Sequence record: LC739536.1
Source of the DNA: Escherichia phage phiWec187
Strand: one strand, 5' to 3'
DNA: 64,000 nucleotides
The notes under the pieces were generated by a model. It worked only from the letters and a program-made list of their open reading frames with translations, did not search any database and was not told the DNA's origin. Positions within the stretch are counted from its first letter, which is position 1. Each line of letters opens with the position of its first letter. Both the position numbers and the translations under genes were made by a program. Positions 8,563 to 55,573 of the stretch are shown here, piece after piece.

Positions 8563-8577
8563 AAAAGGAGTAGTAAA

Positions 8578-37777: not shown

Positions 37778-37781
37778 TCAC

Positions 37782-38942
37782 TTAGTAAGAACGACCACCA
37801 AACACATACTCTGTGTAGTTTTTACGTTCTTTGTTTTTAATAACAACTTCAATGTTGTTGCCTTTATCATCGGTGAACACAAAGTGATAACCGTCACCAC
37901 CCATTGTACGGATGTGTTTTTCATCATACGTCAGCAAGATACGGTCTACACCCCAGTAGTAGTCACCTTCTTCGTCTTTATCTTCTACGGTAACGACTCC
38001 TTCCATTTCAGGAAGATGCTCTTCTCCTGACTTATGATCTACAGCTACAACATAACGATTACCGCTAAACAAACCTTGTGCTGTCATACCGTCAATATCT
38101 GTATCTGACGAAACATCTCCTGTACGATCTACACCGTTAACTTTCAGAAGTTTAACTTCTTTTGCAGCATAGCGGTGTTCAGTAATACTGATACCCATTA
38201 ATGCAAGTGCATCAGAGAATTTGTCATTAGGGTAACGGTTAAGTTCTTCTACTAATGACTGAACAATATCAAAGTTCAAGTCCACGGAAAGATTATAAAG
38301 CGTTTCAAAATCTGGTAAAAAGGCTTTGTTCTCCAGATTTTTAGCCAGATAGTCATCCATAGTAGCTTTAGGTAGTTTCTTATAGCTAAAGCTGTAGAAA
38401 ATACGGCTAGGACGATTACGCAAAAATTCTGATACATAACCATCGTTTTTAGTCAATACAAACAGCTTGTCGTAGCCACCTACACCATCCAGCAGGGTAA
38501 GCAAGCCATCCTGTGCATCTTTTTCAGCATACAGTTTATCAAATTCATCGATCATAATCATCACAGGTTGTGTGATTTTAGACATAAAATTGATAAAGCC
38601 TTCGCCATTAAAAGCACTACCGATAGAAATAGTAGGAATACCCATTTCACGAAGAGCAGAAGACAGCATTTTAGCTTGCAAAGTTTTACCGCTACCCTTC
38701 GTACCCTCAAGGAGAACACCTGTGTTTTTACCTTTGCGGCTAAGGAACGTCTTGATAATACGTTCTGATTTATCATCAGTATCACCGTATGTTACTGAAG
38801 GGACTTCCATATCGTTTTTAGGATACAGGAAGAACTCACCACTTTGAGTAACACCTACACCAAAAGTTCCTGCTGGAATTTCTTCAATATCTGTACCAGA
38901 CTTCTGACGCAGGAAGATTTGATTGCCGAATACTGTAAACAT
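37782..38942 (-). CDS. P-loop ATPase, paralog 1
   Basis: Walker A GTKGSGKT, Walker B IMIDEFDK; clearly homologous along its length to the 54446-55573 ORF. Confidence 0.6.
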   Translation of the reverse strand: MFTVFGNQIFLRQKSGTDIEEIPAGTFGVGVTQSGEFFLYPKNDMEVPSVTYGDTDDKSERIIKTFLSRKGKNTGVLLEGTKGSGKTLQAKMLSSALREMGIPTISIGSAFNGEGFINFMSKITQPVMIMIDEFDKLYAEKDAQDGLLTLLDGVGGYDKLFVLTKNDGYVSEFLRNRPSRIFYSFSYKKLPKATMDDYLAKNLENKAFLPDFETLYNLSVDLNFDIVQSLVEELNRYPNDKFSDALALMGISITEHRYAAKEVKLLKVNGVDRTGDVSSDTDIDGMTAQGLFSGNRYVVAVDHKSGEEHLPEMEGVVTVEDKDEEGDYYWGVDRILLTYDEKHIRTMGGDGYHFVFTDDKGNNIEVVIKNKERKNYTEYVFGGRSY

Positions 38943-38962
38943 AGTTTTCTCCTCTATTTAAT

Positions 38963-39433
38963 TTAGTCAGATTCCCAAATGTTGTCTTTCTTAATCCACA
39001 TTCGTTGATTATCTGAACCTCTATAACGTTTCGTTGTTGGTTGATTCATATCATACTTACCATCTATCACTATGTCAACCAGTTTTTTAATTTTTTCTGG
39101 AATTTCCTCAAAAAGATATCCTGTATATAAGACAATATCTTTTTTGTTTCCAAAACAATCTCTTACCTTCTCAAGAACATACTCTACAGTGTCAATGTTC
39201 TCTTTGTCAAGAGGTTCACCACCTAAAACTGTTAATCCTTTAATGAAAGGTCGAGATAAATCTTTCAAGATAAGATCTAATGTTTCAGTAGTGAACTCTT
39301 GTCCGTGGTTATACGACCAGGCTTTCTGGTTAAAGCAGCCACGGCAACCGTGGCTACAACCGCTCACCCACAAAGAGCATCTTACACCGTCACCGTTGAG
39401 CATGTCAACAGGTTCATATCCGGCGTAATTCAA
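38963..39433 (-). CDS. nrdG: anaerobic ribonucleotide reductase activating protein (radical SAM)
   Basis: CSLWVSGCSHGCRGC Cys cluster near the N-terminus; 156 aa; immediately downstream of nrdD. Confidence 0.8.
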   Translation of the reverse strand: MNYAGYEPVDMLNGDGVRCSLWVSGCSHGCRGCFNQKAWSYNHGQEFTTETLDLILKDLSRPFIKGLTVLGGEPLDKENIDTVEYVLEKVRDCFGNKKDIVLYTGYLFEEIPEKIKKLVDIVIDGKYDMNQPTTKRYRGSDNQRMWIKKDNIWESD

Positions 39434-40371
39434 AAATGTTTCTCCCTTTCTAGTACCTCTTGCATTTTACCTTTATTATAGGGGCGAGAGTTAGGGGCAG
39501 AAAGGTATCCTGACACTCTTCTGATCACAGATATGGATTCTTCTTCATGATTGCCACAACTTGGACACTCGAAGCCTTTAGCCGTTGCTTTAAATTCACC
39601 ATGAAAACCACATTTGAAACACTGATCTACAGGTTGGTTCACACCAAAATAAGGAATTTTGTTGTAGGCATAATCTACAAGAGTTTCCAGTGCTTGCAAG
39701 TTATTTTTAAGGTTTGGTGTTTCTACATAACCTATGTTCCCACCATTACTGATTTGTGCAAAACCTTCCTCATAATCCCACTTTTGGAACGGGGTAGTGT
39801 GCATCCATACAGGTTGATGGAAAGAGTTTGTCAAGTAGTCACGATCAATAGAACCAGGATAGCGATCATTTAATGCTTTGGCAAATTTATAGCACAAGGA
39901 TTCTGCTGGTGTTCCATACAAACTAAAAGCTAAACCAGAACGTTCTTTAAATGTGCCACAGATATCCTTCATATATTGAAGGATGTTTTTACCCATTGCT
40001 TTTGTATTGGTGTTACCTGGGTATAAAATCTCCATAGCTTCTGCTAAACCTACATAACCGATACTAATAGAGGCATAACCACCTTCGAATAGTTTACCAA
40101 TCTCTTCATTAGCTTCTAGTCGAGCTAAAGCCCCTTCCATAAACAATGTAGGGTTTTGAGATGCTTTGGTATGTCTAATACGGTTAACACGTAGCATATG
40201 TGCCTTATACGCCATCTCCATATGTTGTTCCAACAGTTCAGTAAATAAGATGCCCTTTTCACGGGACTCTGCTGCAATGATAGGTAAGTTTAAAGAAACC
40301 ACGCCTAAGTTGAAACGACCATCATATTTTTCACCTTGCTCTGTTGCGTAGTATGACAAGAAACTTCTACA
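39430..40371 (-). CDS. nrdD: anaerobic ribonucleoside-triphosphate reductase, exon 2
   Basis: Begins CRSFL; contains C-terminal zinc ribbon (CFKCGFHGEF...CPSCGN) and glycyl-radical motif RRVSGYL. Confidence 0.8.
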   Translation of the reverse strand, partial: CRSFLSYYATEQGEKYDGRFNLGVVSLNLPIIAAESREKGILFTELLEQHMEMAYKAHMLRVNRIRHTKASQNPTLFMEGALARLEANEEIGKLFEGGYASISIGYVGLAEAMEILYPGNTNTKAMGKNILQYMKDICGTFKERSGLAFSLYGTPAESLCYKFAKALNDRYPGSIDRDYLTNSFHQPVWMHTTPFQKWDYEEGFAQISNGGNIGYVETPNLKNNLQALETLVDYAYNKIPYFGVNQPVDQCFKCGFHGEFKATAKGFECPSCGNHEEESISVIRRVSGYLSAPNSRPYNKGKMQEVLEREKHF

Positions 40372-41140
40372 CATTATGTTCAAAGTGGCTCGCAAGGCCA
40401 CTCCCGCACCATTACGTGCTGCTGCATGTCACCATGCAGATCAGACTATATCTTCATGCTTAAAGCATGTCTACCATTTGGGGTGTCATAGGCTTACACC
40501 CTACGCTGCTACATTCATCACAGCTAGTCGTTAGGCATTTCGTAACAGAACTCATAATCATAATTATTTGGTGCTCCTCGCTTTAAGATTGCAGATATTC
40601 TTTTTCTGTCCAACCCTAAAGCGTCAGCACAACATCTCAGACTTTTAAAGTAAAAAACTTCACCGGTAGCCTTATGAGTAGCTTTTACACTGTGACACCT
40701 TGTGTAGAAAGCATAACAGTTATTATCGTAACCCTCTTGCGTGTTGTCTGGACAAGATCCCCACTCAAGATTGTATACACTATTGTCTTTCCTATTGTCA
40801 CCTTTATGCTTCACATAAGGTAAATTGTCTGGATTGGGTAAAAACGCTTCAGCTACAAGTCTGTGCACCCGAAAGCAAACAGTTTTCTTGTTTTTACGTA
40901 TTCTGACAAGTTGGTATCCTGTGTTTATTTCTTCCCACGAGCGAAGGATTCTTTCATCCTTATACCTGGTACAATAAACATTTCCAAGCTCGTCAATTTC
41001 ATACCCTTCAAAATCACGAATTTGTTTTCTCATATCAGTACCCCCTTCTTCTGTGTTGGGAGTTCTGTTACGTTTAGCACGGGATTGTCTCGTTGAGAGT
41101 TCCCCCGTTTAGGCAGATTTTACATGAGCAGTTATAGTTT
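40372..41140 (-). mobile_element. group I intron (IA2-like) interrupting nrdD
   Basis: 769 nt; 5' exon ends CAUGGGU, which can pair with intron GCUCAUG (P1, U.G at the splice site); intron core AAACGGGGGAACUCUCAACGAGACAAUCCCGUGCUAAA closely resembles the T4 td intron core; intron ends in G; splicing rejoins ...TSMG|CRSFL... Confidence 0.8.
40524..41033 (-). CDS. intron-encoded HNH homing endonuclease
   Basis: 169-aa ORF inside the intron; VHRLVAEAF...HKGDNRKDNSVYNLEW is an HNH signature. Confidence 0.75.
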   Translation of the reverse strand: MRKQIRDFEGYEIDELGNVYCTRYKDERILRSWEEINTGYQLVRIRKNKKTVCFRVHRLVAEAFLPNPDNLPYVKHKGDNRKDNSVYNLEWGSCPDNTQEGYDNNCYAFYTRCHSVKATHKATGEVFYFKSLRCCADALGLDRKRISAILKRGAPNNYDYEFCYEMPND

Positions 41141-41998
41141 ACCCATGCTTGTGACGCGACCATCTGAAGATCCTGTAACTTCTTTGTTTAAAGGTACAGA
41201 GATAAAATCAGGATAAATGCGTTCAGCACAACACTCCATTGCCAGTTGCTTCAAATCATAGTTTGGATCGCCAGCTTTCATGTTAACACCATCTTCCAAG
41301 AAGAAGATAACTTTAGGAAACACAGGAGTTACCCTATCTTTTCCTAATCCTTGTTTGTGCACCATTAGGTAGTTTTTAGTGATCATTCTACCAAAAGCAG
41401 AGGTATCCAAGCCTAAACTAATTGTTATAAAAGGTGACTGACCATTTACACTCATTAGGGTGTTCACCTGGTAGATTAAAGTTTGCATTGCATCATAAAC
41501 CTGTTTATCTACCATACGCATAGCAATATCATAATCGCCAACATCGGCGTATATTTTATTAAAACTTGCTTTAACGTATTGACTAAGCCCAGTATCAATA
41601 TGTGCACAAGTTTGTCCACCATATTGGCTAGAAGCTACTGCTTGAATAATTTGAGTTAGGACAGTAGTTGCTACACCGATAGATTTTGGTTTTTCAATAT
41701 GTGCATTACCAATACGGAAACCGTTCTCAAGCATATCTTGGTAATTTACCAGGCAACAATTAGTTAGAGGTGAGAGTAAATAATCTAAATCGTGAATGTG
41801 ACCATACCCACTTTTATGCCATTCTGCCAGATCTTCCGGTAAAATATGGGTCATTGCCATGTGCTTGCTTAGGATACCTGCTAGTAAGTCTCGGTGAGTA
41901 TTAACAATCATTGCAGGTTTGTTTGCATTTTCACGAGTAAATTCTTCGGATGTTTGTTCGAGGAATCCGATTACATCCTCATATAGTTTTTGGGTCAT
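41141..41998 (-). CDS. nrdD: anaerobic ribonucleoside-triphosphate reductase, exon 1
   Basis: 286 codons ending ...GRVTSMG at the 5' splice site; the listed ORF reads 2 codons into the intron before a stop. Confidence 0.8.
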
Positions 41999-42009
41999 TA
42001 ATCCTCCGT

Positions 42010-42040
42010 GGAAAATAAAAGCCAGCTTAATGCTGGCTTT
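42010..42040 (-). terminator. rho-independent terminator
   Basis: aaagccagc-ttaa-tgctggcttt hairpin followed by U-run on the minus strand. Confidence 0.55.
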
Positions 42041-42087
42041 AGGGTGGATCTTTATTTTAAATCTTTTTCGTAAGATTGTCCTTGATC

Positions 42088-43038
42088 TTAGTCAAGGTTT
42101 TTGGTAATACGTGTACAACCGTCAGAAGTCAAACCGTCAACTTGAGTTTCCCAAGTACCATGAATATTTCGGAACAATGTTGTTACACCTTTTGGTTCAT
42201 TAATAATGATTGCCATAACAAGTTTAGGATCGATAACAGACATAATCTTTTCCTCAATACCCTCTGTAATAACATTATTGCGCACAATATTAATTGCATC
42301 TTCTTGTACAGTAAGAACACTTACGTTCTTAAGAGTATATACCTGCTGTGTAGTGTAAATAATACGAACATAACTTACAGAACGAGTAGGCACAGGTTTA
42401 CGCGGTCGGCGAAAACGTGGTTTTGGTGAAGATTCAGTCTTACTTTCATTTTTTGAATAATACTCCTCAAACAGTTTAGTAAATGTTTTTACATCAACTA
42501 CAAACCGATCTTTCCTATATGGAGAATTCTTATGTGCACCATTAATACCACTGTTTTCATCGAAGAAAGTAATGTTTTCTTCAGTTGAATACATTAGATA
42601 ATGCTCTGCATTTTTCCAATGTGGTTGTGGACAACGAGGATTACAAACGGAAAGCAAATAATTAATATTTTCTTCCGTGGCCTCAGTATCCAGGAAACAC
42701 GTATTATGCACAGTCAGTTGTACTTTTTCAGCCATATCCTTTTCTTTATCCTCATTGGTAAGATATTCAATACGAAGAATTTCCAGAAAATTTTCAGGTG
42801 TTACTTCCATAAATGTATATTCAGGATGAAGTTCCATATATTCAAATCCACAACCATCTAATTGCTGTAGAAAGTTAGGGTAGAAGAACAAATCATTAAC
42901 ACTGTGAATCAGATCATTGATTTCTGCTTCAGTTGTGTAACCAAAACTTTTGTGAATTGCCTCGTTAAGAATATGCAGGATACCCATCTCTTCTGCTGCT
43001 TTTTTAACTTCCAGTTTATTAGCGTAAAATGCAATCAT
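42088..43038 (-). CDS. hypothetical protein
   Basis: 316-aa ORF. Confidence 0.4.
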   Translation of the reverse strand: MIAFYANKLEVKKAAEEMGILHILNEAIHKSFGYTTEAEINDLIHSVNDLFFYPNFLQQLDGCGFEYMELHPEYTFMEVTPENFLEILRIEYLTNEDKEKDMAEKVQLTVHNTCFLDTEATEENINYLLSVCNPRCPQPHWKNAEHYLMYSTEENITFFDENSGINGAHKNSPYRKDRFVVDVKTFTKLFEEYYSKNESKTESSPKPRFRRPRKPVPTRSVSYVRIIYTTQQVYTLKNVSVLTVQEDAINIVRNNVITEGIEEKIMSVIDPKLVMAIIINEPKGVTTLFRNIHGTWETQVDGLTSDGCTRITKNLD

Positions 43039-43055
43039 TATGTTCTCCTTCTAAA

Positions 43056-43490
43056 TTAGTTTAAAATTTCTTTTGCAATGGTAGAAGCAAGTTTTCCATC
43101 ATATTGATTCGGATACTCTGCTTTAAGGTGTTTCATCATATCTGGCATTTTCTTGCCTGTCAAGGCAAATTCTTCGGCAATAGCTCGAAGATCATCTTCA
43201 GATAGCATTTCTGGTAAATATTTCTCCAGAGTGGTGATATCACGCATAGCTCTCTCACATTTGCTAAGGGAAGCATTAACTTTCTTAAGCGAGTCTAGTT
43301 CCTCTTTAGCGTGTGCAATACCAATCTTAACAATGTTAATCATAATATCGTCTTCTGATTTGTTTAGATTTGCCTTTTGAGTACGAGCAAGGTCAAACTC
43401 ACCAATAATATTAGTTAACAAAGCAAAAGCACCCTTATCGGTTGTACGTGCTAAGATACGATCTGCTTTCATTTGTGTCACAATAGACAT
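43056..43490 (-). CDS. GatB/YqeY-domain protein
   Basis: 144 aa; C-terminal LRAIAEEFALTGKKMPDMMKHLKAEYPNQYDGKLASTIAKEIL resembles the YqeY C-terminal domain. Confidence 0.45.
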   Translation of the reverse strand: MSIVTQMKADRILARTTDKGAFALLTNIIGEFDLARTQKANLNKSEDDIMINIVKIGIAHAKEELDSLKKVNASLSKCERAMRDITTLEKYLPEMLSEDDLRAIAEEFALTGKKMPDMMKHLKAEYPNQYDGKLASTIAKEILN

Positions 43491-43502
43491 TCTATTCTCC
43501 TC

Positions 43503-44075
43503 TTATTTGCTAATGCTTTGAGTCTTGTTTATAACACGGTTTATTGCCAGTGAAGCCCTAGGCTCCGCAATACCTGTTGCATAGATATAAGGATGACCTC
43601 TTGGAGACTCCCTCATACCGAATGAACCTAATTCTAAACCATATTCATCCTCTACGTCAACCCCAATATTAGTGGGTACTAAATATGTTTTAACTCCATA
43701 ATAAGTAGAGAAGAAACAGCGCATAGCGTTAGCATACTCTTCAATTGTAGCATCAGGGTAGAACTCAATCAACTCCAATTTCAAGAAAATATTAAAATGG
43801 GTATCATCTAAATTTTCTTCTGTACGGTAACATGGCGTTAGTGCCATATACGGATTACCTGCTGCAAATTCAAAACCATCCTTCTCCATTTGCAGGAAAG
43901 ATTGTTCTGCACTAGCTACATAGTATTTACCGTTAGGATGCCCTAATGGGCGATCCTCTTTATTTTCTGGTAGTGTGTACGCTAGTATATCAGCATCCAC
44001 GAGATATGGAACTTCTAACATTTGTGCAAATCGACCATAGTAATCAATAGCTTGAGCTATTACTGCAACATTCAT
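43503..44075 (-). CDS. class II aminoacyl-tRNA-synthetase-like catalytic core fragment
   Basis: ALTPCYRTEE...HFNIFLKLELIEFY resembles class II motif 2 (fRxE...EF..lE); only 190 aa. Confidence 0.35.
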   Translation of the reverse strand: MNVAVIAQAIDYYGRFAQMLEVPYLVDADILAYTLPENKEDRPLGHPNGKYYVASAEQSFLQMEKDGFEFAAGNPYMALTPCYRTEENLDDTHFNIFLKLELIEFYPDATIEEYANAMRCFFSTYYGVKTYLVPTNIGVDVEDEYGLELGSFGMRESPRGHPYIYATGIAEPRASLAINRVINKTQSISK

Positions 44076-44323
44076 GATCGACCTCCATTGCGGAATGCAC
44101 GTTTAGTAATGTTTGACATAGTGATCAAATCTTGAAGCGTCATATCAGGAAAATGCTGTTCAAGAACACCTTCAACAGCGCCTACAATATCTGATAACTC
44201 AATAAGTTGCATCAGCTTGCAGTCTTGATCAATAGCATCTTGAAGTTCATAAAGCTCTTCTTGAATCTTAGCAACAGAACCATATTCCTCTTTGCTAATC
44301 TCCTTCAAATGATACCCTGCCAC
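44072..44323 (-). CDS. MazG-like nucleotide pyrophosphohydrolase (small)
   Basis: IQEELYELQDAI...LIELSDIVGA fits the MazG EExxEL...ELxD pattern. Confidence 0.45.
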   Translation of the reverse strand: MAGYHLKEISKEEYGSVAKIQEELYELQDAIDQDCKLMQLIELSDIVGAVEGVLEQHFPDMTLQDLITMSNITKRAFRNGGRS

Positions 44324-44333
44324 TTTAACCCCC

Positions 44334-47108
44334 TTAGTTTACCAGTTTATTTATGTCTGGTAAAAGATTTATTTCACCTAAGAAATCACCTTCACCTTCC
44401 TCTAGCCAACTCTCATATGCTTGTGCATGATTATAGTTACCATCAAAAGAATCTGCAACAAATTTTTCTACAGTTTTTCGAGATGTGTCAGCGCCAAATA
44501 CACCAAGTTTAATACCATTGATAGGTAAAGTGGTGCTTGTGGGTACTTTCTCTGTTGCAACACGGTTGATATCTATAATCTCCTGTACGGTTGTGTTCCA
44601 TTGTAAGCATTTAACACAACGGGTGTGCGCTACATACAGTAGGTTTCGCTCTGCCTCTTCTAGTCCTACCCATTCACCAGTCTTTTTATCATAATTGGAA
44701 GGAAAATCATTAGCAACAATAACCTGATCCCACTCCAAACCTTTAGATTTGTGTGCTGTAGTCAATGTGACTTTTGCTGTAGGAGAATTTCTATGCGTTC
44801 TAAGTGTATGTGCTATAGTGTTTGCCTTACCAGAAACTACAATGTTTAACAAACGTTTAGCATCTGGATCAGCCTCTGCACACTCAACAAATTCATCCCA
44901 GTCTGCATAAGGTAATACAGTTTCATGTTTTACTTTCTCAATATCTCCTCTCCGAAGAGCATTAACACTATCTACCATAGAGATAAAATCCCTGGTATCT
45001 ACGTTAATAATAATTTCTTCCCCGTCTGCAATACGATCCATTGCCTCCATAAGCAAGGTTAAATTCTTGCGAAAGATGATAGTGTAAGGTTTTGTATAGT
45101 CTACAACATCTGATTTGTAGCTACCTACTACAGTATCAAAGCCTTTACCAACCAAAGGATGACGCAAAGGTTCTTTATCGCTTAAAATCATATTGGCAAT
45201 GTTTGCCACTTTGGGGCCAAAACGGAAGCAAGCAGTTAATGGAAGTTCTGCCCCATACTTAGCTGTTTCAATCATCATATTAGAGCTACCTCTAAATTGA
45301 TAAATGCAGTTGTGGCTAAGAATTTCATTGCCAAAGAAGTTAGCAGTATCCTCTACTTCAATATCATAATAGATACCCTCACTATCTACAATGTCCACAA
45401 TCTCTTCTGCCGTTACAGTATCACCATCTTTTACCAACACAGACATGCCTTTAAACAAACCCGCTGCCGGAATTAAGTTATATTTGGCACTGTTCACAGA
45501 GGACATGCATTCTTTTAAAGATGCAAACGGAACTATTTCAAGGATCTTTTGTGCAAAACTCAATGCTTCACGATAAGAATTGAAATATTTACGTACACGG
45601 TAACGACCTTCCAATTTAGCAGCACTTACGCTTACACCTGCTTTAATCAGTGAAGAATAGATCGGCATTTCACTTTCTGTCCACTCAAAACTAACTTGTG
45701 TTCCTTTACAACCTTGTGCTCGCAAAGTCACTGTTAGCATTTTTCTTTCATCTACTGCACAATTGATGCTGTGCCAGTGTGGATAAGCAAAATGATAATC
45801 TTTATCCTCTAAAAGTTTAAAACCATTTTGTCCGAATTGTTCAAAGATGTTATTGATCTTTTCTTGATTAATGCCGCGTGAACTTGCTTCAAATACACAA
45901 GTAGGCATGCCATATTGTAAACTGTAAGCCATTTCTTTTTCCATAGCAGCTTCACGGTTTTCAACAATATCCAACACCCATAATTTCTGTGCTTTTTCAG
46001 AACGTGTACGTTGCCCCAGTTTAGAAAAACCTTCTTTATCATCGAATTTGTTAGTGATCCCTACTCGGAAACCTAAATCTTTCCTCCACATTAGGTATAC
46101 CACCATCTGATCATCTTTCAGAACATAGGATGAAGCCCAAATACGATGGTTATGTGTCATATCTAAAGTTTTACCTGTGGCAGTAATAATATTCCTACCT
46201 TTTGTACGTGTAGATAAAGTCTTATTTGTTACTTTTCTAAATGTAATTTTACCATTAGAATAAGACTCTACCTTATCACCGATTTGTAGGTCTTTCATTG
46301 TAACCTGACCATTCTCGGTATTAAGTACCGTGTTTTCCGACACACATTGGAATTCATCGCCCACTACCACAATTTGTTTTGCAGATTTAGCATTTCGCAG
46401 AATAGACAAGAATGCAGGGTTAACATCCTGGAATTCATCACCAAAAATAATGTCATAACCAAGATCAGCACCTGATAATTCAAACAATTTTACATAGGTG
46501 TCATGCGTCATCAAAGTATCTGTGTTAGGATCGATGCGCTCTCGCCACAATTGTTTTGCATACTTAACCACTTCTGTAATTAGTTTATGTTCGTTAATAC
46601 CTTTTCTTTTAATATCTGCAAGATGTACACCAGGAAAATGTTTACGGCTGATAAAAGGATCATCCGAAAATTCAAACTTACCTACGGTTTGTTTGATCAT
46701 TAAACCAATCATAGCACGAGTTAACAGTGTTTTCCCTCGTTTATCAATAAGATTATTAATCTTAAATTTCTTTGCTATCTCGCTACCTGTACCTGCAACG
46801 TTAACATACTGTCCTTCTGGTCGTGACAGTTTTGCACGTAAACGATGATCCAGGAATTGATAGCAAATAGAATGCAATGTACGGCATTCTACATTTAGTG
46901 GCATCTTACGTCGTGCTTCTTCTGCCATGCTTTTATTGAAAGCTAAGTAAAGAATGCGATCTTCTGTACTGTTAGCCAGCAAATAAAGTGTTGACGTTTT
47001 GCCTGATCCAGATTTAGCTTGGATAGTTAAAAAGCGATGGTCTGGAAAAGCCTCCTTAATAGCTGTTTGCTCTTCTGTTGGAGTGAAGCTCAACTCTTTC
47101 TTAGCCAT
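44334..47108 (-). CDS. SF1 (UvrD/Dda-like) DNA helicase interrupted by an intein
   Basis: Walker A AKSGSGKT; motif II IIFGDEFQD; motif III VVVGDEFQ|CIYQFRGSS split by a 346-aa insert; start set at ATG 47108 (MAKKEL). Confidence 0.75.
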   Translation of the reverse strand: MAKKELSFTPTEEQTAIKEAFPDHRFLTIQAKSGSGKTSTLYLLANSTEDRILYLAFNKSMAEEARRKMPLNVECRTLHSICYQFLDHRLRAKLSRPEGQYVNVAGTGSEIAKKFKINNLIDKRGKTLLTRAMIGLMIKQTVGKFEFSDDPFISRKHFPGVHLADIKRKGINEHKLITEVVKYAKQLWRERIDPNTDTLMTHDTYVKLFELSGADLGYDIIFGDEFQDVNPAFLSILRNAKSAKQIVVVGDEFQCVSENTVLNTENGQVTMKDLQIGDKVESYSNGKITFRKVTNKTLSTRTKGRNIITATGKTLDMTHNHRIWASSYVLKDDQMVVYLMWRKDLGFRVGITNKFDDKEGFSKLGQRTRSEKAQKLWVLDIVENREAAMEKEMAYSLQYGMPTCVFEASSRGINQEKINNIFEQFGQNGFKLLEDKDYHFAYPHWHSINCAVDERKMLTVTLRAQGCKGTQVSFEWTESEMPIYSSLIKAGVSVSAAKLEGRYRVRKYFNSYREALSFAQKILEIVPFASLKECMSSVNSAKYNLIPAAGLFKGMSVLVKDGDTVTAEEIVDIVDSEGIYYDIEVEDTANFFGNEILSHNCIYQFRGSSNMMIETAKYGAELPLTACFRFGPKVANIANMILSDKEPLRHPLVGKGFDTVVGSYKSDVVDYTKPYTIIFRKNLTLLMEAMDRIADGEEIIINVDTRDFISMVDSVNALRRGDIEKVKHETVLPYADWDEFVECAEADPDAKRLLNIVVSGKANTIAHTLRTHRNSPTAKVTLTTAHKSKGLEWDQVIVANDFPSNYDKKTGEWVGLEEAERNLLYVAHTRCVKCLQWNTTVQEIIDINRVATEKVPTSTTLPINGIKLGVFGADTSRKTVEKFVADSFDGNYNHAQAYESWLEEGEGDFLGEINLLPDINKLVN
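45309..46346 (-). mobile_element. intein in helicase motif III
   Basis: Starts CVSENTVL (block A), ends ...EILSHN followed by Cys; 346 aa implies an embedded endonuclease of unclear type. Confidence 0.7.
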
Positions 47109-47109
47109 T

Positions 47110-47586: not shown

Positions 47587-47594
47587 ATTTCCCC

Positions 47595-48110: not shown

Positions 48111-48131
48111 TATATTTTCCTTATTGGTTTG

Positions 48132-48572: not shown

Positions 48573-48810
48573 CCGCTGCTACCAACACATCACCATGACA
48601 AGGTTGAGGTGAGCAGAAGCAAACTAAGTCTTTCCCTTCTAATTCTAACAAATCCTCAAGAGTGATTTTACCACAATGAATTTGTTCCCACAACCACTCT
48701 TTATATCTTTGTATAGTTGATCCTCGTGGTTCATCATCCTTTAACTTAAAAGGATTTGCAAACTTTGAGGCTTTTAACCCCATATGAGGCATAGCTCTGC
48801 CAATGTACAC
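48475..48810 (-). CDS. hypothetical protein with conserved-looking Cys/His motif
   Basis: 111 aa; KDLVCFCSPQPCHGDVL. Confidence 0.4.
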   Translation of the reverse strand: MYIGRAMPHMGLKASKFANPFKLKDDEPRGSTIQRYKEWLWEQIHCGKITLEDLLELEGKDLVCFCSPQPCHGDVLVAAVAWARTEWDKRHPTYTDDYWIWEDIYEDYTRN

Positions 48811-48863
48811 TGCACCTTCAGGTATTACTTTACCTAAGTGGTAAAAAATTTAATACTTTCATA

Positions 48864-49214
48864 TTAACCCAAACACATTTGTGCAATCAAGCCCTGTATA
48901 AATTTATTAGCTTCTTTACTGTCGTAGTCAGTCTCTTCTGGATATCCATCTTCATCGTACACAACTGTACCTTCAATATACCCTGCCTCAATTAAGGCGC
49001 GGATCATATCAAATTGCCAGCATGAGTTACCAAATGGACGTTTACCATTAAAACACTCTTCTTCTCTCCATAACGTAGAGAGTAGTTGTCGGAAATATTC
49101 CCGTACAGTGACAGTACCAAGATCTGAATCCTCAAACATAACATCCAGGGCATCAGGATTGCTTTTCTCTACATAAGGGATATATTTAACACCATTAATA
49201 GTTACATCAAGCAT
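48864..49214 (-). CDS. hypothetical protein
   Basis: 116-aa ORF. Confidence 0.4.
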   Translation of the reverse strand: MLDVTINGVKYIPYVEKSNPDALDVMFEDSDLGTVTVREYFRQLLSTLWREEECFNGKRPFGNSCWQFDMIRALIEAGYIEGTVVYDEDGYPEETDYDSKEANKFIQGLIAQMCLG

Positions 49215-49577
49215 TTATTTCTCCTTATCATCATATTCTAAGAACATATCTGCACGATATGCTTTACGCTCTTCAAACTTAGCAGGATCTACAACAATAA
49301 GCAATACAAGGTTAACATCTAAATACTTCTTAACAAATAGAAATAAATCTTTTCCACAGTTAAAACCTACACCAGTATAGGCATCCCCATATTGATCTAC
49401 TGATTTAATCTTCTTACTAACCGTACACTCTATGCTATTCTTTTCTTCTTGGTATAAGGCTTTCCCACCCCAATATGTAAAGAATTTAGTACCGTCAGCA
49501 CCAAGTTTAAAACCTTCTGTTGCATGTCCCGCAAATGAAAGTAAACATAACCAAGTGATCATCAGGTACTTTAGCAT
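49215..49577 (-). CDS. secreted hypothetical protein
   Basis: Start at internal Met; signal-peptide-like MLKYLMITWLCLLSFAGHA. Confidence 0.4.
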   Translation of the reverse strand: MLKYLMITWLCLLSFAGHATEGFKLGADGTKFFTYWGGKALYQEEKNSIECTVSKKIKSVDQYGDAYTGVGFNCGKDLFLFVKKYLDVNLVLLIVVDPAKFEERKAYRADMFLEYDDKEK

Positions 49578-49578
49578 T

Positions 49579-50061
49579 TTAACCACCCAATTGCAAATGT
49601 TTAGAAAGAACAATATCCCACTGATCACCACAACCGTTATCTATGCGGAACATAATGTACGTATCATCTTCTTCTACGACATATAATACCTCATAGGAAT
49701 TACAACAGCCTTCCCAATTTTTAACAGCCTCTGGTGTATCATGTGTAAAAATTTCATTACCATCATATAACCAAAACAAAGGGGTAAGGTTTTCGAAGGT
49801 CAGTGAAGTAGGGTTTACTTCATCTTTAACTGCTTCCTCATATTCTTTATGCGTTTGTACTGCTTTAGTTAGTGTACTCATGTCTATCTCCTTTTCTCCT
49901 TCTTGACTATGGAGGATAGCAAACTCTCTAAACTCCACTTCACGCCATGTTTTCAGGTAGTGCTTTATAATTTTATCAACATCTGCCTGTTCAACATTAC
50001 TTTTCAAGCAATAGTAATCATGGTCTTCGCCCATTCTACCCCATATGCTATACATTGTCAT
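49579..50061 (-). CDS. hypothetical protein
   Basis: 160-aa ORF. Confidence 0.4.
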   Translation of the reverse strand: MTMYSIWGRMGEDHDYYCLKSNVEQADVDKIIKHYLKTWREVEFREFAILHSQEGEKEIDMSTLTKAVQTHKEYEEAVKDEVNPTSLTFENLTPLFWLYDGNEIFTHDTPEAVKNWEGCCNSYEVLYVVEEDDTYIMFRIDNGCGDQWDIVLSKHLQLGG

Positions 50062-50329
50062 CTGATTGATCCTTTACATTGTTCGTGGTATACACAGGAA
50101 TAACATCATTGTGATCTTTATTACTTTCATCTGTTAAAGCCCAAAACAACTTACCTGCTGGATGTTTAAAGATGTAAGCAATAGGTTCCTCTTCCTGGGC
50201 TTCTTTGCTACGGATACCATCCCGCCAGGCAAGCCAAGTGTAGATCATCACTTCTTGACGTTCTTCTTCGTTAGGCCACATATGTGGTGGAAAGTTTTTA
50301 TCAAACCATTGCTTAAATTCTTCAGTCAT
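50048..50329 (-). CDS. hypothetical protein
   Basis: 93-aa ORF. Confidence 0.35.
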   Translation of the reverse strand: MTEEFKQWFDKNFPPHMWPNEEERQEVMIYTWLAWRDGIRSKEAQEEEPIAYIFKHPAGKLFWALTDESNKDHNDVIPVYTTNNVKDQSDDNV

Positions 50330-50564
50330 AGTCTACTCCTTAGCGTACAAAGTTAACTTCTGCTTCTTTCAGCTTTGACACTTCTACATAACCACCATGA
50401 TCATCTTTAATCCATTCTTTTCCTTTACGGATGATAACAGGATATGTAGAGTGAGTAAGTTTAGGTACAGATCTTTTTGTTTTAGTGATAGAAATGTTTT
50501 GCATAGTAGTCTCCTTAGTAAATTTTACATAGAGTCTAGATTATTTAGTAGATAGAGTCAATAA

Positions 50565-50831
50565 CTAATTACTGTTAGATCTGTATTCTGTCTTCCATTC
50601 ACAATGGTAAACTTCAACAGGTTCTAACTTCCAATGTTCAGGAACTAATTCAGGGCAATATCTACAAAAGAGAAATAGATAGATAACTAAGACAGGTATT
50701 AAATAGTAAAATGGTATACGATCATAACCATACTTACGAGATAACATGTAGACATATAGATAGGGTATAACAATTAATCCTATAACTATAAGTAAGAAGA
50801 GAAGTATAAACCTTAGTGTAGTAACATCCAT
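50565..50831 (-). CDS. small membrane protein
   Basis: 88 aa; two hydrophobic helices. Confidence 0.35.
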   Translation of the reverse strand: MDVTTLRFILLFLLIVIGLIVIPYLYVYMLSRKYGYDRIPFYYLIPVLVIYLFLFCRYCPELVPEHWKLEPVEVYHCEWKTEYRSNSN

Positions 50832-50995
50832 AGTATTCTCCTATACAGTAATATACTCTGTTCCTGCCCCTCCATGAGTGACAGGAACAATATCTATAGA
50901 GAATACTAACTCGCTTCGCTCGTCACCTTTCAGGTTTAGGGTAGCATGTTTTTCTGAAAAAGTCAATACTCTCCACAAAACTTTACAAAATACTT

Positions 50996-51268
50996 TTACA
51001 TAGGTACAACAGAGTCTGTTTTGAAGTCGTACATATGATTTACACCTGTGATTTTTGACATAGAGATCGCACGTTTAGCACCTGCAATTACCTGGTCTGT
51101 CTTCTTAATCTCTTCACGGAACTTACGTACAGTTAAAGAGAAGAAACGATGATCCATCCATTGACGATTCACACGATCACGCTTGAAGTGACGGAAATCT
51201 TCAATCTGTTTATTACGCAATCGGCGCAGTACATGTAATAGTTTATAGTAAGGGTGTTTATTTTTCAT
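50996..51268 (-). CDS. hypothetical basic protein
   Basis: 90-aa ORF. Confidence 0.35.
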   Translation of the reverse strand: MKNKHPYYKLLHVLRRLRNKQIEDFRHFKRDRVNRQWMDHRFFSLTVRKFREEIKKTDQVIAGAKRAISMSKITGVNHMYDFKTDSVVPM

Positions 51269-51271
51269 AAT

Positions 51272-51700
51272 TTATTCTCCAAATCGAAAATCGTCAATAT
51301 CATCAAACCATACACAATGGCGAGTCCTTTCTTTTTCTGTTGCAGACATTGTTTCAACAGCTTTAGGACTAAGCACAACAGGAATGTAACGAACAGGTCG
51401 TTCATAATAGTAGCCATACTTTTCTGTATTAGCTGCCTCAAAGACTTTACGGCGTTCTTCAAGATCTTCTATGGTGAATCCTACCATATAACCATCATGT
51501 TTGCTACCCCATCCTTCCTCACTTTCAACAATTGGGATATAAAAGCCGTTACGCGTCCCTGACGCTGGTTCTTCTTGAGCCTGAAGGCAAGCCTCCCATC
51601 CTGCTTTAAAGACGTTATAGAGCGATTTACGCACGTTATGAGTGCCGCTTTCGCTTGCTGGATAGAGTTCATTAAATTTATCTTGGATTTGTTGTGTCAT
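51272..51700 (-). CDS. hypothetical protein
   Basis: 142-aa ORF. Confidence 0.4.
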   Translation of the reverse strand: MTQQIQDKFNELYPASESGTHNVRKSLYNVFKAGWEACLQAQEEPASGTRNGFYIPIVESEEGWGSKHDGYMVGFTIEDLEERRKVFEAANTEKYGYYYERPVRYIPVVLSPKAVETMSATEKERTRHCVWFDDIDDFRFGE

Positions 51701-51843
51701 ACTCGCCCCTTAGTGATTATTTGACCAGCTAAACAAATAGCTTGTAGTACAATAAAGAAGTAGCCTAATTTTACACTACCCAATACCCAGAATGCAATGT
51801 TTGCAAACAAACAAAAAGCAATATTAAGTCTAAAGAATAACAT

Positions 51844-52110
51844 TTAATCCCCTTCATATTTAGGTAAAGGCATATATGCCACAATAGGAGGGTAATCAAA
51901 GTGAAAATGATGGTTCACCACAATAATCTTACCAGACATACTTTTATGCACTTCACAATACCCTTTTTCACCATCTTCCATTACCACCACATACTCACCT
52001 AGTGGAATATCATATGGATCTTCTACTTTTACCCATTCTGTCATTTTGTAAACTCCTCGTAGTAAGGTAAAGCCTTGATCAGTTGTTCTGAAGTGCCATT
52101 TTGCACCCAC
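51844..52110 (-). CDS. hypothetical protein
   Basis: 88-aa ORF. Confidence 0.35.
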   Translation of the reverse strand: MGAKWHFRTTDQGFTLLRGVYKMTEWVKVEDPYDIPLGEYVVVMEDGEKGYCEVHKSMSGKIIVVNHHFHFDYPPIVAYMPLPKYEGD

Positions 52111-52208
52111 GTAACACCATTGTCAACAGAAACATACCCTTTTTTGTCAATAAATTTACGCAGACAACCAGTGAACTTATTTTTGTAGATAACCATCCTT
52201 ACTCCTTG

Positions 52209-52562
52209 TTACATCCACAGGTTATGAAAATACTTAGCAAACAAAATGCGACCTTCTAAACGATCTTGCCGCTGTTTTTCATTAACTTCTTCTGGTGGAG
52301 TTGAGTCCTTAAAAGAAGACTCCATTTTTTCAAGAATTTCTAACCAGTGTTCTGCTGCTCGTTCTTCCATATAAGGTAGATAGTCACCTTTAGCGTGTGG
52401 GTACATCCGACGAAGTAACCCACTAGGAATTTTAACATTGTTTGTGGCTATCACTTTTGCACGATACGCAGAAAGTGCATTGTAGATCAGTTTACTTAGT
52501 GTCACATCTAGATCAAGAAGATCACTCTCTTCAAATTGAATTTCATCGTGTACAATTTTCAT
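52209..52562 (-). CDS. hypothetical protein
   Basis: 117-aa ORF. Confidence 0.4.
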   Translation of the reverse strand: MKIVHDEIQFEESDLLDLDVTLSKLIYNALSAYRAKVIATNNVKIPSGLLRRMYPHAKGDYLPYMEERAAEHWLEILEKMESSFKDSTPPEEVNEKQRQDRLEGRILFAKYFHNLWM

Positions 52563-52573
52563 ATCACTCTCCT

Positions 52574-52864
52574 TTATAGTAAAACACGTTTTGCACTGCT
52601 TGGTGCATTGTCGAACATGTCTATCACTTTGTCAAGTTTGTGTATTAACTCGTTCGTAATGTTCCACTCTTTGTATGATCTCCATTGTTTCTTATTCTCA
52701 CCTACCTGGTGTAAAACTTTGATTGGTGCATTCAAACGTACATTGCGTTCTTTGTCCTCTTCAAAAGAGGCTAACCATTTTTCGTTATGCCCATGAACAG
52801 CAATAATAATGCCAAAACCATCAAAAGTTTCTGTAATATTCTTAGTTGCTAGTGTGATGTTCAT
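52574..52864 (-). CDS. hypothetical protein
   Basis: 96-aa ORF; first gene of the minus-strand block. Confidence 0.4.
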   Translation of the reverse strand: MNITLATKNITETFDGFGIIIAVHGHNEKWLASFEEDKERNVRLNAPIKVLHQVGENKKQWRSYKEWNITNELIHKLDKVIDMFDNAPSSAKRVLL

Positions 52865-52923
52865 ATCTAACCTCTTTTGTTACGATACACACAGAGTACC
52901 AGAAACTAATTTCAGATCAAGTA

Positions 52924-52951
52924 TTGACATACTGTTTTATTGTGCTAATCT
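52924..52951 (+). promoter_or_regulatory. sigma70-like promoter in the divergent region
   Basis: TTGACA at 52924, 16-nt spacer, TAATCT at 52946. Confidence 0.45.
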
Positions 52952-52983
52952 TAATGCATACACAAATGAGAGGAGATAAACGA

Positions 52984-53535
52984 ATGCAAAACACCGATCT
53001 GACTTGGGTAGAAGCCAAAGAAGCAATGTTAAAAGGTAAACGTGTTAAACATAAATACTTTTGCGAAGGGGAATGGTTTGAAATGCGTAACCGATCCATT
53101 GTAGATGAAAAAGGGAATGACATGCAACAATGGTTCAAAAATGAAATTTGGCAGGGAACAGGTTGGTCTGTAGTTGAAGAGCAGCCTAGCTCAAGCGCAC
53201 TGTTTAGCCCTATTATGTATCGCGTTATCGGTGCTTTAGTTGTTGATCACGGGATTGCAGTGGAAAAAGAATGCTGGGAAGAGGTATCTTTTTTCAACCT
53301 GGCTTCTTATGCAAAAAGCCATATGCACTTGTTTGAAGAAGGGGATGAATTTGTTCTTCGTATGCGATATGGCAAAGAATTCAGATTACCACTTGATAAT
53401 GATGTAGACACTGTTGTAAAATGGTTAGCAGAGCATTACGCTTACGATGCAATTTGTGGTCGCAGCTTCGGCAACGAACGCTGGGACATGATTTGTGAAA
53501 AATATGATTTTGAGCCGGAGTACGGAGTTTTATAA
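52984..53535 (+). CDS. hypothetical protein
   Basis: Start at ATG 52984 after GAGGAG. Confidence 0.4.
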   Translation: MQNTDLTWVEAKEAMLKGKRVKHKYFCEGEWFEMRNRSIVDEKGNDMQQWFKNEIWQGTGWSVVEEQPSSSALFSPIMYRVIGALVVDHGIAVEKECWEEVSFFNLASYAKSHMHLFEEGDEFVLRMRYGKEFRLPLDNDVDTVVKWLAEHYAYDAICGRSFGNERWDMICEKYDFEPEYGVL

Positions 53536-53786
53536 TGTTAAGTATCAAACCTAAAATGATAACAGCAGATGAAGCAGACTTTATTTTCAAATGTGGACGT
53601 GTATGGAGAGAATTCACAAAAGGGAATGAAGTGGTTGTTGTTGTCGAACACAAGATATCTATCCAGGATCTGTTTGGACAATATGTTGATGTTATTAAAT
53701 TAGGTATTGACAAGGGTTTAGTTGAGGTGTTAACATTAGATCAAGTTGAAGCAGAGCACCTCGATAAAGTGGTGGTTGAATTTTAA
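53535..53786 (+). CDS. hypothetical protein
   Basis: 83-aa ORF, start overlaps the previous stop. Confidence 0.35.
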   Translation: MLSIKPKMITADEADFIFKCGRVWREFTKGNEVVVVVEHKISIQDLFGQYVDVIKLGIDKGLVEVLTLDQVEAEHLDKVVVEF

Positions 53787-53994
53787 AATACAGACGGGAG
53801 AAAGGTATGAGTTTCTTTGTTACAGTATTTATGGCTATCTGGATTGTAGTCTCACTCGTTCTTTTCCTGGTGGGTTGTCTGGAAGAGATTAAGAAAGCGG
53901 TTATTTGCGGTTTCTTTGGCTTTATTATCTCTCCTGCCTGGATGTGGTTCTTCATTATGATTGGTTTCCTTAAAAGGTAAGTGAGGAATAAAGA

Positions 53995-54432
53995 ATGAGT
54001 AAAACAAACGCAATCGCAGATAAAGCAACGGATGTACTTCTGAACATGGTTAACGTCACTATTCAAACAATGAGTGATGTTGTGGAGTTTGGAAAACAAC
54101 AAATTCCAGAAGTAATCCATCAATTATTAGTGTGGAAAGCAGTATCCGCAGGTTTATGGCAACTTTTTAGTATTTGCTTTATGTTTATTACTTTTATTGC
54201 TGTGCGGAACCTCATAAAAGCAATTAAAGATAAAGAATGTCTGTGGTCACGAGATCGCTATGGTGAGGTATCTGCTTTGCCTATTGTTGGTCTTGTTGTC
54301 TGTGCTTTCTTTTTCTTTTTAGGATTTGTTATTTTCTTTTCGAATTTCGATTGGCTAAAAATTATTATTGCACCAAAAGTGTATCTGATTGAATTTGCTG
54401 CTGATTTAATTCGTTCATCTCAACAAAGATAA
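53995..54432 (+). CDS. membrane protein
   Basis: 145 aa with several hydrophobic helices. Confidence 0.4.
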   Translation: MSKTNAIADKATDVLLNMVNVTIQTMSDVVEFGKQQIPEVIHQLLVWKAVSAGLWQLFSICFMFITFIAVRNLIKAIKDKECLWSRDRYGEVSALPIVGLVVCAFFFFLGFVIFFSNFDWLKIIIAPKVYLIEFAADLIRSSQQR

Positions 54433-54445
54433 AAGGGGGTTTAAA

Positions 54446-55573
54446 ATGAAATACACGATTTATGGTGATATTGTAAGTGTAAATAAAGATATGGGCGTGG
54501 AATCTAACTATCTTCCACCTGGATTCTATACTGTTAGTCGTGATCCCCTTGGCAATTATTTTTTAAGCCGTGGTAATCTGACAGGTGTACCGGATGTTCT
54601 GTATGGTGAAACAGAAAAACGAGCAAATCACGTTATCCGTACATTCCATCGCCGGAGTGCACAAGGTAAAAACACAGGCTTGCTTCTGACAGGAACTAAG
54701 GGCAGTGGTAAAACTATGTTAGCCAAACTCATTAGTCGTGACCTTGTAGAAGAAGGTATTCCAACTATTATGGTTACTCAAGCCTACAGTGATGCTAATT
54801 TCATTGAACTTATTAGCAAGATCACCGACAAAGCAGTGATTATTTTTGACGAGTTTGATAAAGTGTATGAGAAGAAACAAGATCAAGAAGCACTTCTCAC
54901 TTTGTTAGATGGTACTGGCAGTGGTAATAAACTGTTTATTCTGACTAAAAACAGTGGTTTTATTTCTGAATTCTTTTTAAATCGTCCTAGTCGTGTGTTT
55001 TATAATTTTAATTATGATAAAATCTCACTAGAAACTATGATTGACTATTTAGATAAAAACCTAGATAACAAAGCACACTTTGATAATTTCCAAAGACTTT
55101 GGGATGTAAGTTTAGAGTTGTCCTTTGATGTGATCCAAGGTATAGTAGAAGAACTTAATTTCTACCCTGATTTATCCTTTAAAGAATGCATCTCTATGAT
55201 GGGCGTTTCTTTGGGTGGTGGTAATAAGTGGGATATCAGCAGCGTTGTTATTAATGGGAAACTTCAGAAAGTTAGCTGGGTATCTAGTTGGCATAACTTC
55301 ACACCTGCAATCTTTTTAGGTGGTTCGTGCACACTGGACGTGTACTTGTCATCTCCAAGTGATGCAGATTCTAAAGAAGCCCTTGCTAATAGCTCTTACG
55401 TGGTTTTTGATGATGAAGGCGATGCTCGAATTCCATTGAATGCGACAAAAATGAAAGCAGATCTTATTACAGGCGGTAAAATCGTTGTGTTTAGTGATGA
55501 TCCAGAAGATTCTTTCCGTATTGTTCTGGAACCAACTATCACCAATGGTGCAACTTTGGCAAGTGTGTTTTAA
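54446..55573 (+). CDS. P-loop ATPase, paralog 2
   Basis: Walker A GTKGSGKT, Walker B IIFDEFDK; homologous throughout to 37782-38942; terminator follows. Confidence 0.6.
   Translation: MKYTIYGDIVSVNKDMGVESNYLPPGFYTVSRDPLGNYFLSRGNLTGVPDVLYGETEKRANHVIRTFHRRSAQGKNTGLLLTGTKGSGKTMLAKLISRDLVEEGIPTIMVTQAYSDANFIELISKITDKAVIIFDEFDKVYEKKQDQEALLTLLDGTGSGNKLFILTKNSGFISEFFLNRPSRVFYNFNYDKISLETMIDYLDKNLDNKAHFDNFQRLWDVSLELSFDVIQGIVEELNFYPDLSFKECISMMGVSLGGGNKWDISSVVINGKLQKVSWVSSWHNFTPAIFLGGSCTLDVYLSSPSDADSKEALANSSYVVFDDEGDARIPLNATKMKADLITGGKIVVFSDDPEDSFRIVLEPTITNGATLASVF

Follow-up and report, generated by a model that had tools for sequence, protein, structure and literature searches.

Identification and comparison of the two ATPase genes

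The stretch of DNA analysed (the window) comprises 64,000 nucleotides of Escherichia phage phiWec187 (LC739536.1) and carries two genes for AAA+ ATPases, named here copy A and copy B. The two genes lie on opposite strands and in different operons with 15.5 kb between them. Good ribosome-binding sites were found for both, GAGGAG ahead of the ATG at 38942 for copy A and AAGGGGG ahead of the ATG at 54446 for copy B. The positions of the genes, their domains and the adjoining signals are summarized in Table 1.

The two translated open reading frames (ORFs) were aligned using BLASTP. The alignment showed 145/375 identities (39%) and 59% positives at an E-value of 1e-81, and it runs over residues 2-369 of copy A and 3-362 of copy B. 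This bears out the original prediction, made from the sequence of the window, that the two ORFs align along their full length. The similarity far exceeds the Walker motifs, and the motifs quoted for the pair (GTKGSGKT, I[MI][IF]DEFDK, LLTLLDG, LTKN and NRPSR) were all present. The identity between the copies by region was 28% for the N-terminal domain, 58% for the alpha/beta subdomain of the AAA module, 46% for the lid and 13% for the C-terminal third. Direct profile comparison of the two C-terminal domains indicated that they are weakly related (hhalign E 0.007); each of them links to the C-terminal domain of an intermediate clade of 368-residue proteins at an hhalign E of about 1e-7 (3e-7 for copy B), and the AlphaFold2 models of the two domains predict strands and helices in the same succession. 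Copies A and B are true, anciently diverged paralogs.

An all-against-all BLASTP of the ORFs in the window returned just two paralog pairs, A and B being one of them. None of the flanking genes proved to be duplicated together with the ATPase in this comparison, and therefore the duplication comprises the ATPase gene alone. The other pair is a tandem on the minus strand (22850-23794 and 23806-24819) having 41% identity over 324 residues at E 1e-80, and one of its members showed a weak glycosyltransferase-like match.

Family and clade assignment

Both proteins belong to PHROG 2376, a phage protein family annotated as 'ATPase'. The match covered residues 1-376 of 386 for copy A (E 2e-104) and residues 1-367 of 375 for copy B (E 7e-108). 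The Pfam AAA model PF00004 scored 29.4 bits for copy A and 38.9 bits for copy B, both over the cut-off of 21.2 bits; the Pfam models RNA_helicase, AAA_5 and nSTAND3 came marginally over their cut-offs for copy B, on the same P-loop segment. A profile of 49 family members matched p97/Cdc48 D2 at E 2e-12, followed by VAT, AFG2, Rix7, NVL and BCS1, and all the listed matches (the best 60 of 69) were classical-clade AAA proteins. The NRPSR motif of the family aligned with RPGR of p97, that is with the arginine fingers of the second region of homology. These motif and profile matches place both copies in the classical AAA clade of the AAA+ superfamily. The original prediction had described an unusual Walker ATPase; this description was not confirmed, because the motifs are canonical for the classical clade and the family reaches PF00004 and p97/Cdc48 with the scores given above.

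The window itself is that of a phi92-like Justusliebigvirus of the subfamily Stephanstirmvirinae. Escherichia phages SD2, arall and VEcB match the region 37000-45000 from end to end at 98% identity; for phi92 the identity is 98.5% over 94% of the region, and here, as in some other relatives, the match falls into two pieces. Both copies are 99-100% identical to deposited genes, which are annotated as 'ATPase' in VEcB, phi92 and alia, and as 'ATPase or Zn metalloprotease' or 'FtsH-like protease' in other records. Both genes already carry annotations, and the phage AAA+ family to which they belong is a known one that awaits characterisation; what is new here is the comparison of the paralogs, their three-domain anatomy and the finding that no partners are conserved.

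The public records gave one further observation. Thirteen of them labelled 'Campylobacter phage' (host Campylobacter jejuni) matched this E. coli phi92-like region, among them MG065639, MG065645, MG065656 and MG065689 at about 98% identity, and one 'Campylobacter phage' record in the copy B search carried a 100% identical copy B protein. These records may bear wrong host labels or may derive from mixed phage preparations.

Membership in more specific AAA families was rejected on the following grounds. For an FtsH-type AAA protease, no match to the M41 peptidase domain, no HExxH in either translation and no transmembrane segment were found, and the protease label is therefore unjustified. For DnaC, IstB and Hda, the scores stood at 29.8 bits for Hda (cut-off 194.8) and 19.9 bits for IstB (cut-off 200). 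The clamp-loader PHROGs matched at E 1e-5 to 1e-8, in the P-loop region only. Copy A gave no match to the curated NCBIfam models. Against the PADLOC models of known anti-phage defence proteins copy A gave no match and copy B gave a marginal P-loop match (E 8.5e-4).

Domain anatomy and catalytic motifs

Three domains make up each protein: at the N-terminus a small beta domain, then a compact AAA motor, and at the C-terminus a beta domain specific to the family. The N-terminal domain, of about 45 residues and five strands, is particular to the PHROG 2376 family and is found throughout it, as the matches in the representative library begin at query residues 2-23. It is followed by a Tyr-Gly N-linker, in which G54 is invariant and Y53 nearly so in the family alignment (copy B numbering). 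The full-length AlphaFold2 model of copy B had a predicted local distance difference test score (pLDDT) of 87.6, and the model of the copy A C-terminal domain had a pLDDT of 82.5.

The catalytic motifs are complete in both copies. In copy A these are Walker A at G80-T87 (K86), Walker B at D132/E133 (IMIDEF), sensor-1 at N166 and arginine fingers at R177/R180; in copy B the corresponding motifs are Walker A at G83-T90 (K89), Walker B at D135/E136 (IIFDEF), sensor-1 at N169 and arginine fingers at R180/R183. The alignment of 49 homologs revealed that K89, D135, E136, N169, R180 and R183 (copy B numbering) are invariant. Pore-loop-like residues were seen as F111-x-G113 in copy A and Y114-x-D116 in copy B. 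The position corresponding to pore loop 1 is F, Y or W in 43 of the 49 sequences and is followed at +2 by G or D, copy B having D, in a loop that is shorter than that of p97. The C-terminal domain had no invariant residues, polar ones included, in the same alignment, and for this reason it probably serves in binding or assembly rather than as an enzyme.

Table 1. Positions of the two ATPase genes, their domains and nearby signals in the window
Feature	Position	Strand	Remark
Copy A, AAA+ ATPase, 386 aa	37782..38942	minus	ORF and translation; corresponds to phi92 gp190 and VEcB gp170
Copy A N-terminal beta-rich domain and YG N-linker (residues ~1-52)	38787..38942	minus	28% identity to the copy B N-domain
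Copy A AAA+ module, alpha/beta subdomain and lid (residues 73-252)	38187..38726	minus	Identity to copy B 58% / 46%
Copy A C-terminal beta-rich domain, family-specific (residues 253-386)	37785..38186	minus	
Terminator-like hairpin AAAGGAGGC-GAAA-GCCTCCTTT with T-rich tail	37754..37775	minus	Directly after the copy A stop; scan
Tentative sigma-70-like promoter TTGACA-17-TATGAT, 11/12 matches	39050..39078	minus	Inside the nrdG 3' end, ~108 nt upstream of the copy A start
Copy B, AAA+ ATPase, 375 aa	54446..55573	plus	ORF and translation; corresponds to alia gp101
Copy B N-terminal beta domain, five strands (residues 3-43), and Y53-G54 N-linker	54446..54610	plus	Modelled secondary structure
Copy B AAA+ module (residues 75-255)	54668..55210	plus	
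Copy B C-terminal beta-rich domain (residues 256-375)	55211..55570	plus	Block pLDDT 80-95
Terminator-like hairpin AAAACCCGC-TCCG-GCGGGTTTT	55589..55610	plus	16 nt past the copy B stop; scan

Distribution of the family

The distribution of PHROG 2376 was analysed in a library of 1.84 billion 50%-identity representatives, where 1,083 clusters were retrieved at E<=1e-30 and 3,295 at E<=1e-10. Among 185,579 prokaryotic species, with one genome for each, only 43 loci were found, and nearly all of them lie on contigs of metagenome-assembled genomes (MAGs) that resemble binned phage DNA. The family appears to be confined to viruses. Homologs were found by tblastn in Phapecoctavirus, in jumbo phages (GAP32, Serratia BF, Atu_ph07 and XbC2 among the members), in Herelleviridae-type Bacillus and Enterococcus phages, and further in Staphylococcus, Lactobacillus, Lactococcus, Aeromonas, Acinetobacter and crAss-like phages. 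In a structural search of BFVD, the whole three-domain fold matched unnamed AAA proteins of Erwinia, Salmonella, Agrobacterium, Proteus and Lactobacillus phages.

History and selection of the two copies

The two-copy state was found in about 65 phage records, comprising Justusliebigvirus and a few Klebsiella phages such as phi1_175008, and several metagenomic contigs of 145-156 kb also hold an A-type and a B-type gene. The sister genus Phapecoctavirus has a single B-type gene, which is 64.5% identical to copy B and lies at the syntenic position. Copy B is the copy at the ancestral position, common to Phapecoctavirus, and copy A is the extra copy. In a neighbour-joining tree of the N-terminal and AAA regions, the A clade was recovered with a bootstrap of 100% and the B clade with 99%, and copy A grouped with the 368-residue clade at 66%.

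The orthologs of a related Klebsiella phage were used to examine selection on both copies. The amino-acid identity was 76% for copy A and 74% for copy B, rising to 91% and 85% in the AAA module and falling to 48% and 60% in the C-terminal domain. The nonsynonymous divergence (dN) ranged from 0.05 to 0.44 and the synonymous divergence (dS) was saturated for both copies, with a dN/dS of about 0.09 for copy A. The low dN, the saturated dS and the domain identities revealed purifying selection on both copies, which is tightest on the motor. The original prediction of an old duplication kept in both places is supported, in that an old duplication, or the early gain of a second copy, has been kept by selection, judging from the bootstraps, the low dN and the number of two-copy records.

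Surroundings of copy A

Copy A abuts the Ter-like module, as the original prediction stated; it lies between nrdG and a cluster of HAD, PRTase, Macro and TerC genes and is co-oriented with a gene for a 937-residue helicase, with nrdD/nrdG and with ribonucleotide-reductase-like genes (the helicase/nrd/Ter operon). In Phapecoctavirus ESCO13 the gene order is nrdD-nrdG-63aa-201aa-HAD-PRTase-phosphatase-TerC and copy A is absent, its position in the window being exactly the junction of nrdG and the 63-residue gene. Because ESCO13 has the Ter-like module directly after nrdG, this module exists without copy A, and the ATPase does not consistently accompany the HAD, PRTase and TerC genes. In Klebsiella phage phi1_175008, copy A is directly upstream of the 63aa-201aa-HAD-PRTase...TerC/Alx genes and has no nrdG upstream. 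The tentative promoter ahead of copy A (Table 1) serves as a lead only, because the count of promoter-like sites in the region was not above chance.

Two further observations concern the genes around copy A. The nrdD gene is split at position 263 of the Pfam NRDD model into an N-part (41132-41998) and a C-part (39430-40401) on the minus strand, with an ORF for a 169-residue HNH/I-HmuI-like endonuclease (40524-41033) between them. The nrdD of ESCO13 is intact (604 residues), and the split looks like an intron or a homing-endonuclease insertion. Unassigned short domains are also shuffled among the genes around copy A and around the ATPases of the 368-residue clade. These were seen at 42088-43038 and 35162-35992 on the minus strand of the window, at 4586-5389 of locus L006, and at 3920-4933 and 8508-9071 of locus L050. 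The N-part of the Macro protein and the C-part of a 316-residue protein labelled 'ribonucleotide reductase' both recur in a 267-residue protein of L006, which is encoded upstream of the ATPase.

Surroundings of copy B

Copy B lies in an early-type block of small genes just past a divergent promoter region. The original prediction placed it before a zinc-ribbon gene and a NADAR gene; the order is correct, and the 'zinc-ribbon' gene (55648-56637, plus strand) turned out to be endonuclease-like, having CapR and T5orf172 domains and matching endonuclease PHROGs. The size of this gene product varies, with 329 residues in the window, 466 in alia, where an extra N-terminal CapR-like stretch is present, and 400 in Phapecoctavirus. 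NADAR is also found downstream of copy B in Phapecoctavirus. In Klebsiella phage phi1_175008 neither the endonuclease-like gene nor NADAR was found within 3.5 kb downstream of copy B. HNH endonuclease genes occur less than 4 kb from family members in unrelated phages, namely Lactococcus phage AM12 and several metagenomic loci. The gene after copy B appears to behave as a mobile homing-type endonuclease gene that has settled next to a conserved one.

Just upstream of copy B there is an ORF of 145 residues (53995-54432, plus strand), which belongs to PHROG 3054 and, from two extended hydrophobic segments, resembles a small membrane protein. The ORFs at the same position in four other phages are unrelated to it.

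Search for conserved partners and 3' hairpins

The neighbourhood of the ATPase was compared across the family. The ORFs directly flanking the ATPase in four phages were unrelated to one another. Clustering of the neighbours within 4 kb, at first for 38 loci and then for about 108 loci, gave only lineage-limited synteny and no shared partner family. In 13 uncultured viral contigs the ATPase is closely preceded by NAMPT, NMNAT-Nudix and a phosphatase, but these were rejected as partners; the 13 NAMPT loci represent a single lineage, with ATPases at least 60% identical.

Genes of NAD+/ADP-ribose metabolism were seen near several family members. In the window, copy A is followed at a distance of about 1.9 kb by a Macro-domain gene (35162-35878, minus strand; 30.8 bits), which is annotated as 'phosphatase' in the Ter cluster, and the NADAR gene (56638-57189, plus strand) lies about 1 kb after copy B. 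Elsewhere, a Macro gene is near the ATPase in five loci, which are phage-like contigs binned with Clostridia MAGs, and NMNAT-Nudix is found at locus L029. Large phages often collect NAD+/ADP-ribose genes in early regions, and the genes near family members may represent co-location without functional coupling.

In every A and B ortholog examined, a GC-rich tetraloop hairpin comes just past the stop codon, and in the window both hairpins have T-rich tails. A comparable hairpin, built on another stem (AAAGGGGC-GAAA-GCCCCTTT), follows the A ortholog of Klebsiella phage phi1_175008 (6165-6184 in locus L050); for B orthologs the hairpins lie at 6157-6176 in Phapecoctavirus locus L003 and at 4629-4646 in Klebsiella phage locus L052. 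The stems vary by lineage, and two-sided changes keep the pairing. This conservation suggests that each ATPase gene ends a transcription unit or has a protective 3' hairpin.

Proposed function of the two ATPases

Copies A and B are proposed to be stand-alone, ring-forming, protein-remodelling motors of the classical clade, which share one engine, carry diverged specificity domains and are not components of the adjoining gene modules. The probability of this reading is put at roughly 0.6. According to it, each copy would assemble into a ring, as other classical AAA proteins do, and the hydrolysis of ATP would drive the gripping and the remodelling or unfolding of a protein substrate, with the conserved aromatic residue turned towards the pore. 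Choice of the target, or assembly, would fall to the N- and C-terminal domains. Between the copies the motor is kept at 58% identity, against 28% for the N-terminal and 13% for the C-terminal domain, and the genes stand in different operons; A and B therefore most likely differ in their targets or in the time at which they act. Ring formation and a protein substrate are put forward by homology to the classical AAA clade, separate targets from the divergence of the terminal domains. That A and B do different jobs is plausible on the strength of their diverged terminal domains, not of their neighbours.

Several points weigh against this proposal. A functional study of any PHROG 2376 member was not found in the literature on the phi92/Justusliebigvirus ATPase, on phage AAA+ unfoldases and on anti-defence AAA+ proteins, and the oligomeric state, the ATPase activity and the substrate are all predicted. 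In the profile alignment the pore-loop-1 segment is shorter than that of p97 and pore loop 2 is largely deleted, so that threading may not be the mode of action. The grouping of copy A, the 368-residue clade and copy B, apart from the jumbo-phage clade, had a bootstrap of only 69%, and copy A may have come from an old in-genome duplication, which fits the tree, or from a transfer from a related phage. The crAss-like homolog consists of the N-terminal domain and the AAA module only and is encoded between primase and exonuclease in the replication block, and copy A shares its orientation with the helicase, nrdD/nrdG and ribonucleotide-reductase-like genes.

The last two points leave room for a different explanation, by which the family would act in replication, for example by loading a helicase or by remodelling the replisome or nucleoid, and not as a general protein unfoldase, with copy A serving its replication/nucleotide operon. 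In crAss-like phages four genes of the replication block are highly conserved, one of them being the 'AAA domain ATPase' ATP_43b (PMC7886860). ATP_43b may belong to the same family as A and B. Weak matches to clamp-loader and DnaC-like PHROGs and to the Hda and IstB models point in the same direction, and in some sources homologs go under the name 'DNA replication protein' or 'DnaC'. However, the DnaC, IstB, Hda and clamp-loader matches are far under the family cut-offs, while the R-P-x-R of the second region of homology and the profile matches indicate the classical clade. Characterised members of this clade remodel proteins. Most members of the family, including copy B and those of Bcp1, Salmonella phage 7-11 and Lactococcus phage AM12, are also encoded among small early genes and not among replication genes. 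A role in replication is judged unlikely.

It was also considered whether A and B co-assemble as one hetero-oligomeric AAA ring, comparable to Pex1/Pex6, Yta10/Yta12 and the FtsHi proteins. Paralogous classical AAA proteins often form mixed rings (Pex1/Pex6, m-AAA). The AAA cores of A and B are 58% identical, the inter-subunit arginine fingers and the sensor residues are invariant, and the two copies are retained together in every two-copy lineage seen, both in the phage records and in the metagenomic contigs. On the other side, most members of the family are single-copy, including that of Phapecoctavirus, which implies that homo-oligomers must work, and the distance, the opposite orientation, the different operons and the separate terminator-like hairpins of the two genes do not favour joint assembly. 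A mixed ring thus appears quite improbable.

A more specific version of the motor proposal was also weighed, in which the proteins would act as early 'disassembly motors' for host takeover or counter-defence, the two copies being specialised on two host or defence complexes or joined in a mixed A/B ring. A weak hint in this direction is given by the NAD+/ADP-ribose genes, which occur less than 4 kb from family members in several separate lineages. This version is speculative, and the chance that it is correct is slim.

The original prediction had taken the two copies as parts of two ATP-driven systems with different partners in the adjoining genes, so that copy A would be the ATP-driven part of the Ter-like (HAD/PRTase/Macro/TerC/TerD) module and copy B that of the zinc-ribbon/NADAR system. 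The adjacency holds here and in all Justusliebigvirus records, copy A is directly upstream of the 63aa-201aa-HAD-PRTase...TerC/Alx genes in phi1_175008 as well, NADAR follows copy B in Phapecoctavirus too, and each copy has a gene for ADP-ribose processing 1-2 kb downstream. The comparison with other phages nevertheless speaks against it. ESCO13 retains the complete series from nrdG through the 63-residue, 201-residue, HAD, PRTase and phosphatase genes to TerC without copy A, and the Klebsiella phage keeps copy B without the endonuclease or NADAR in the 3.5 kb that follow. The gene after copy B is a size-variable endonuclease-like gene, and HNH genes are also seen near members in unrelated phages. 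Terminator-like hairpins separate both ATPases from the genes downstream, and none of the 38 and then about 108 loci revealed a conserved partner. Coupling to the adjacent modules is thus very unlikely.

Least probable of all is that A and B are phage 'BCS1 orthologs', acting as folded-protein translocases in membrane-proximal virion assembly, the role put forward by Iyer et al. 2021 for jumbo-phage AAA+ proteins: BCS1 appeared in the family-profile search at E 1e-7, PHROG 2376 has members in jumbo phages, and BCS1 orthologs were described in all three jumbo-phage groups by Iyer et al. 2021 (PMC7824862; not tied to PHROG 2376 and given with no accession), but both proteins are free of a transmembrane segment (maximum Kyte-Doolittle 19-residue mean about 1.0), BCS1_N (PF08740) was unmatched even at E<=1, p97 outscored BCS1 by sequence profile, and the genes lie in early or metabolic operons and not in structural modules.

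Significance

For this window the finding is an ordinary one, namely two annotated AAA+ paralogs kept in a well-sequenced phage genus. The family as a whole is of wider interest, because PHROG 2376 is carried by many large virulent phages, among them coliphages and Klebsiella phages of relevance to therapy, Herelleviridae, jumbo phages and crAss-like phages. With a motor that is complete by its motifs and with more than 1,000 clusters, it is a common phage protein still without an assigned function. Because the phi92-like phages have two specialised copies, comparing these would be a natural way to find the substrates. Should the motor take apart host or defence complexes, the family would constitute a new class of phage takeover tool; should it serve replication, a gap in several phage replisomes would be filled.

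Comparison with known systems

The two proteins were compared with characterised AAA systems. The bacterial Trip13/Pch2 of CBASS-HORMA (PDB 6p8v) showed 14% identity and a score no better than that of generic classical AAA proteins, and no HORMA or CdnC genes were found near the phage ATPases. For FtsH-like AAA proteases the likeness is confined to the AAA module. The structural match to mitochondrial BCS1 likewise covers the AAA part only, and the phage proteins differ from it in having neither a membrane anchor nor a BCS1-specific domain. The phAPEC8-type ATPase, gp125 of Salmonella phage 7-11 and Bcp1_221 of the Bacillus phage are further members of PHROG 2376, and nothing sets copies A and B apart from this family. 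Compared with the classical AAA proteins (p97/Cdc48 D2, Rix7/NVL, AFG2, NSF-D2, spastin/katanin, Vps4 and Msp1/ATAD1), the phage family is devoid of the known N-terminal elements (MIT, double-psi barrel or transmembrane segment), and its members are built on a single compact AAA module.

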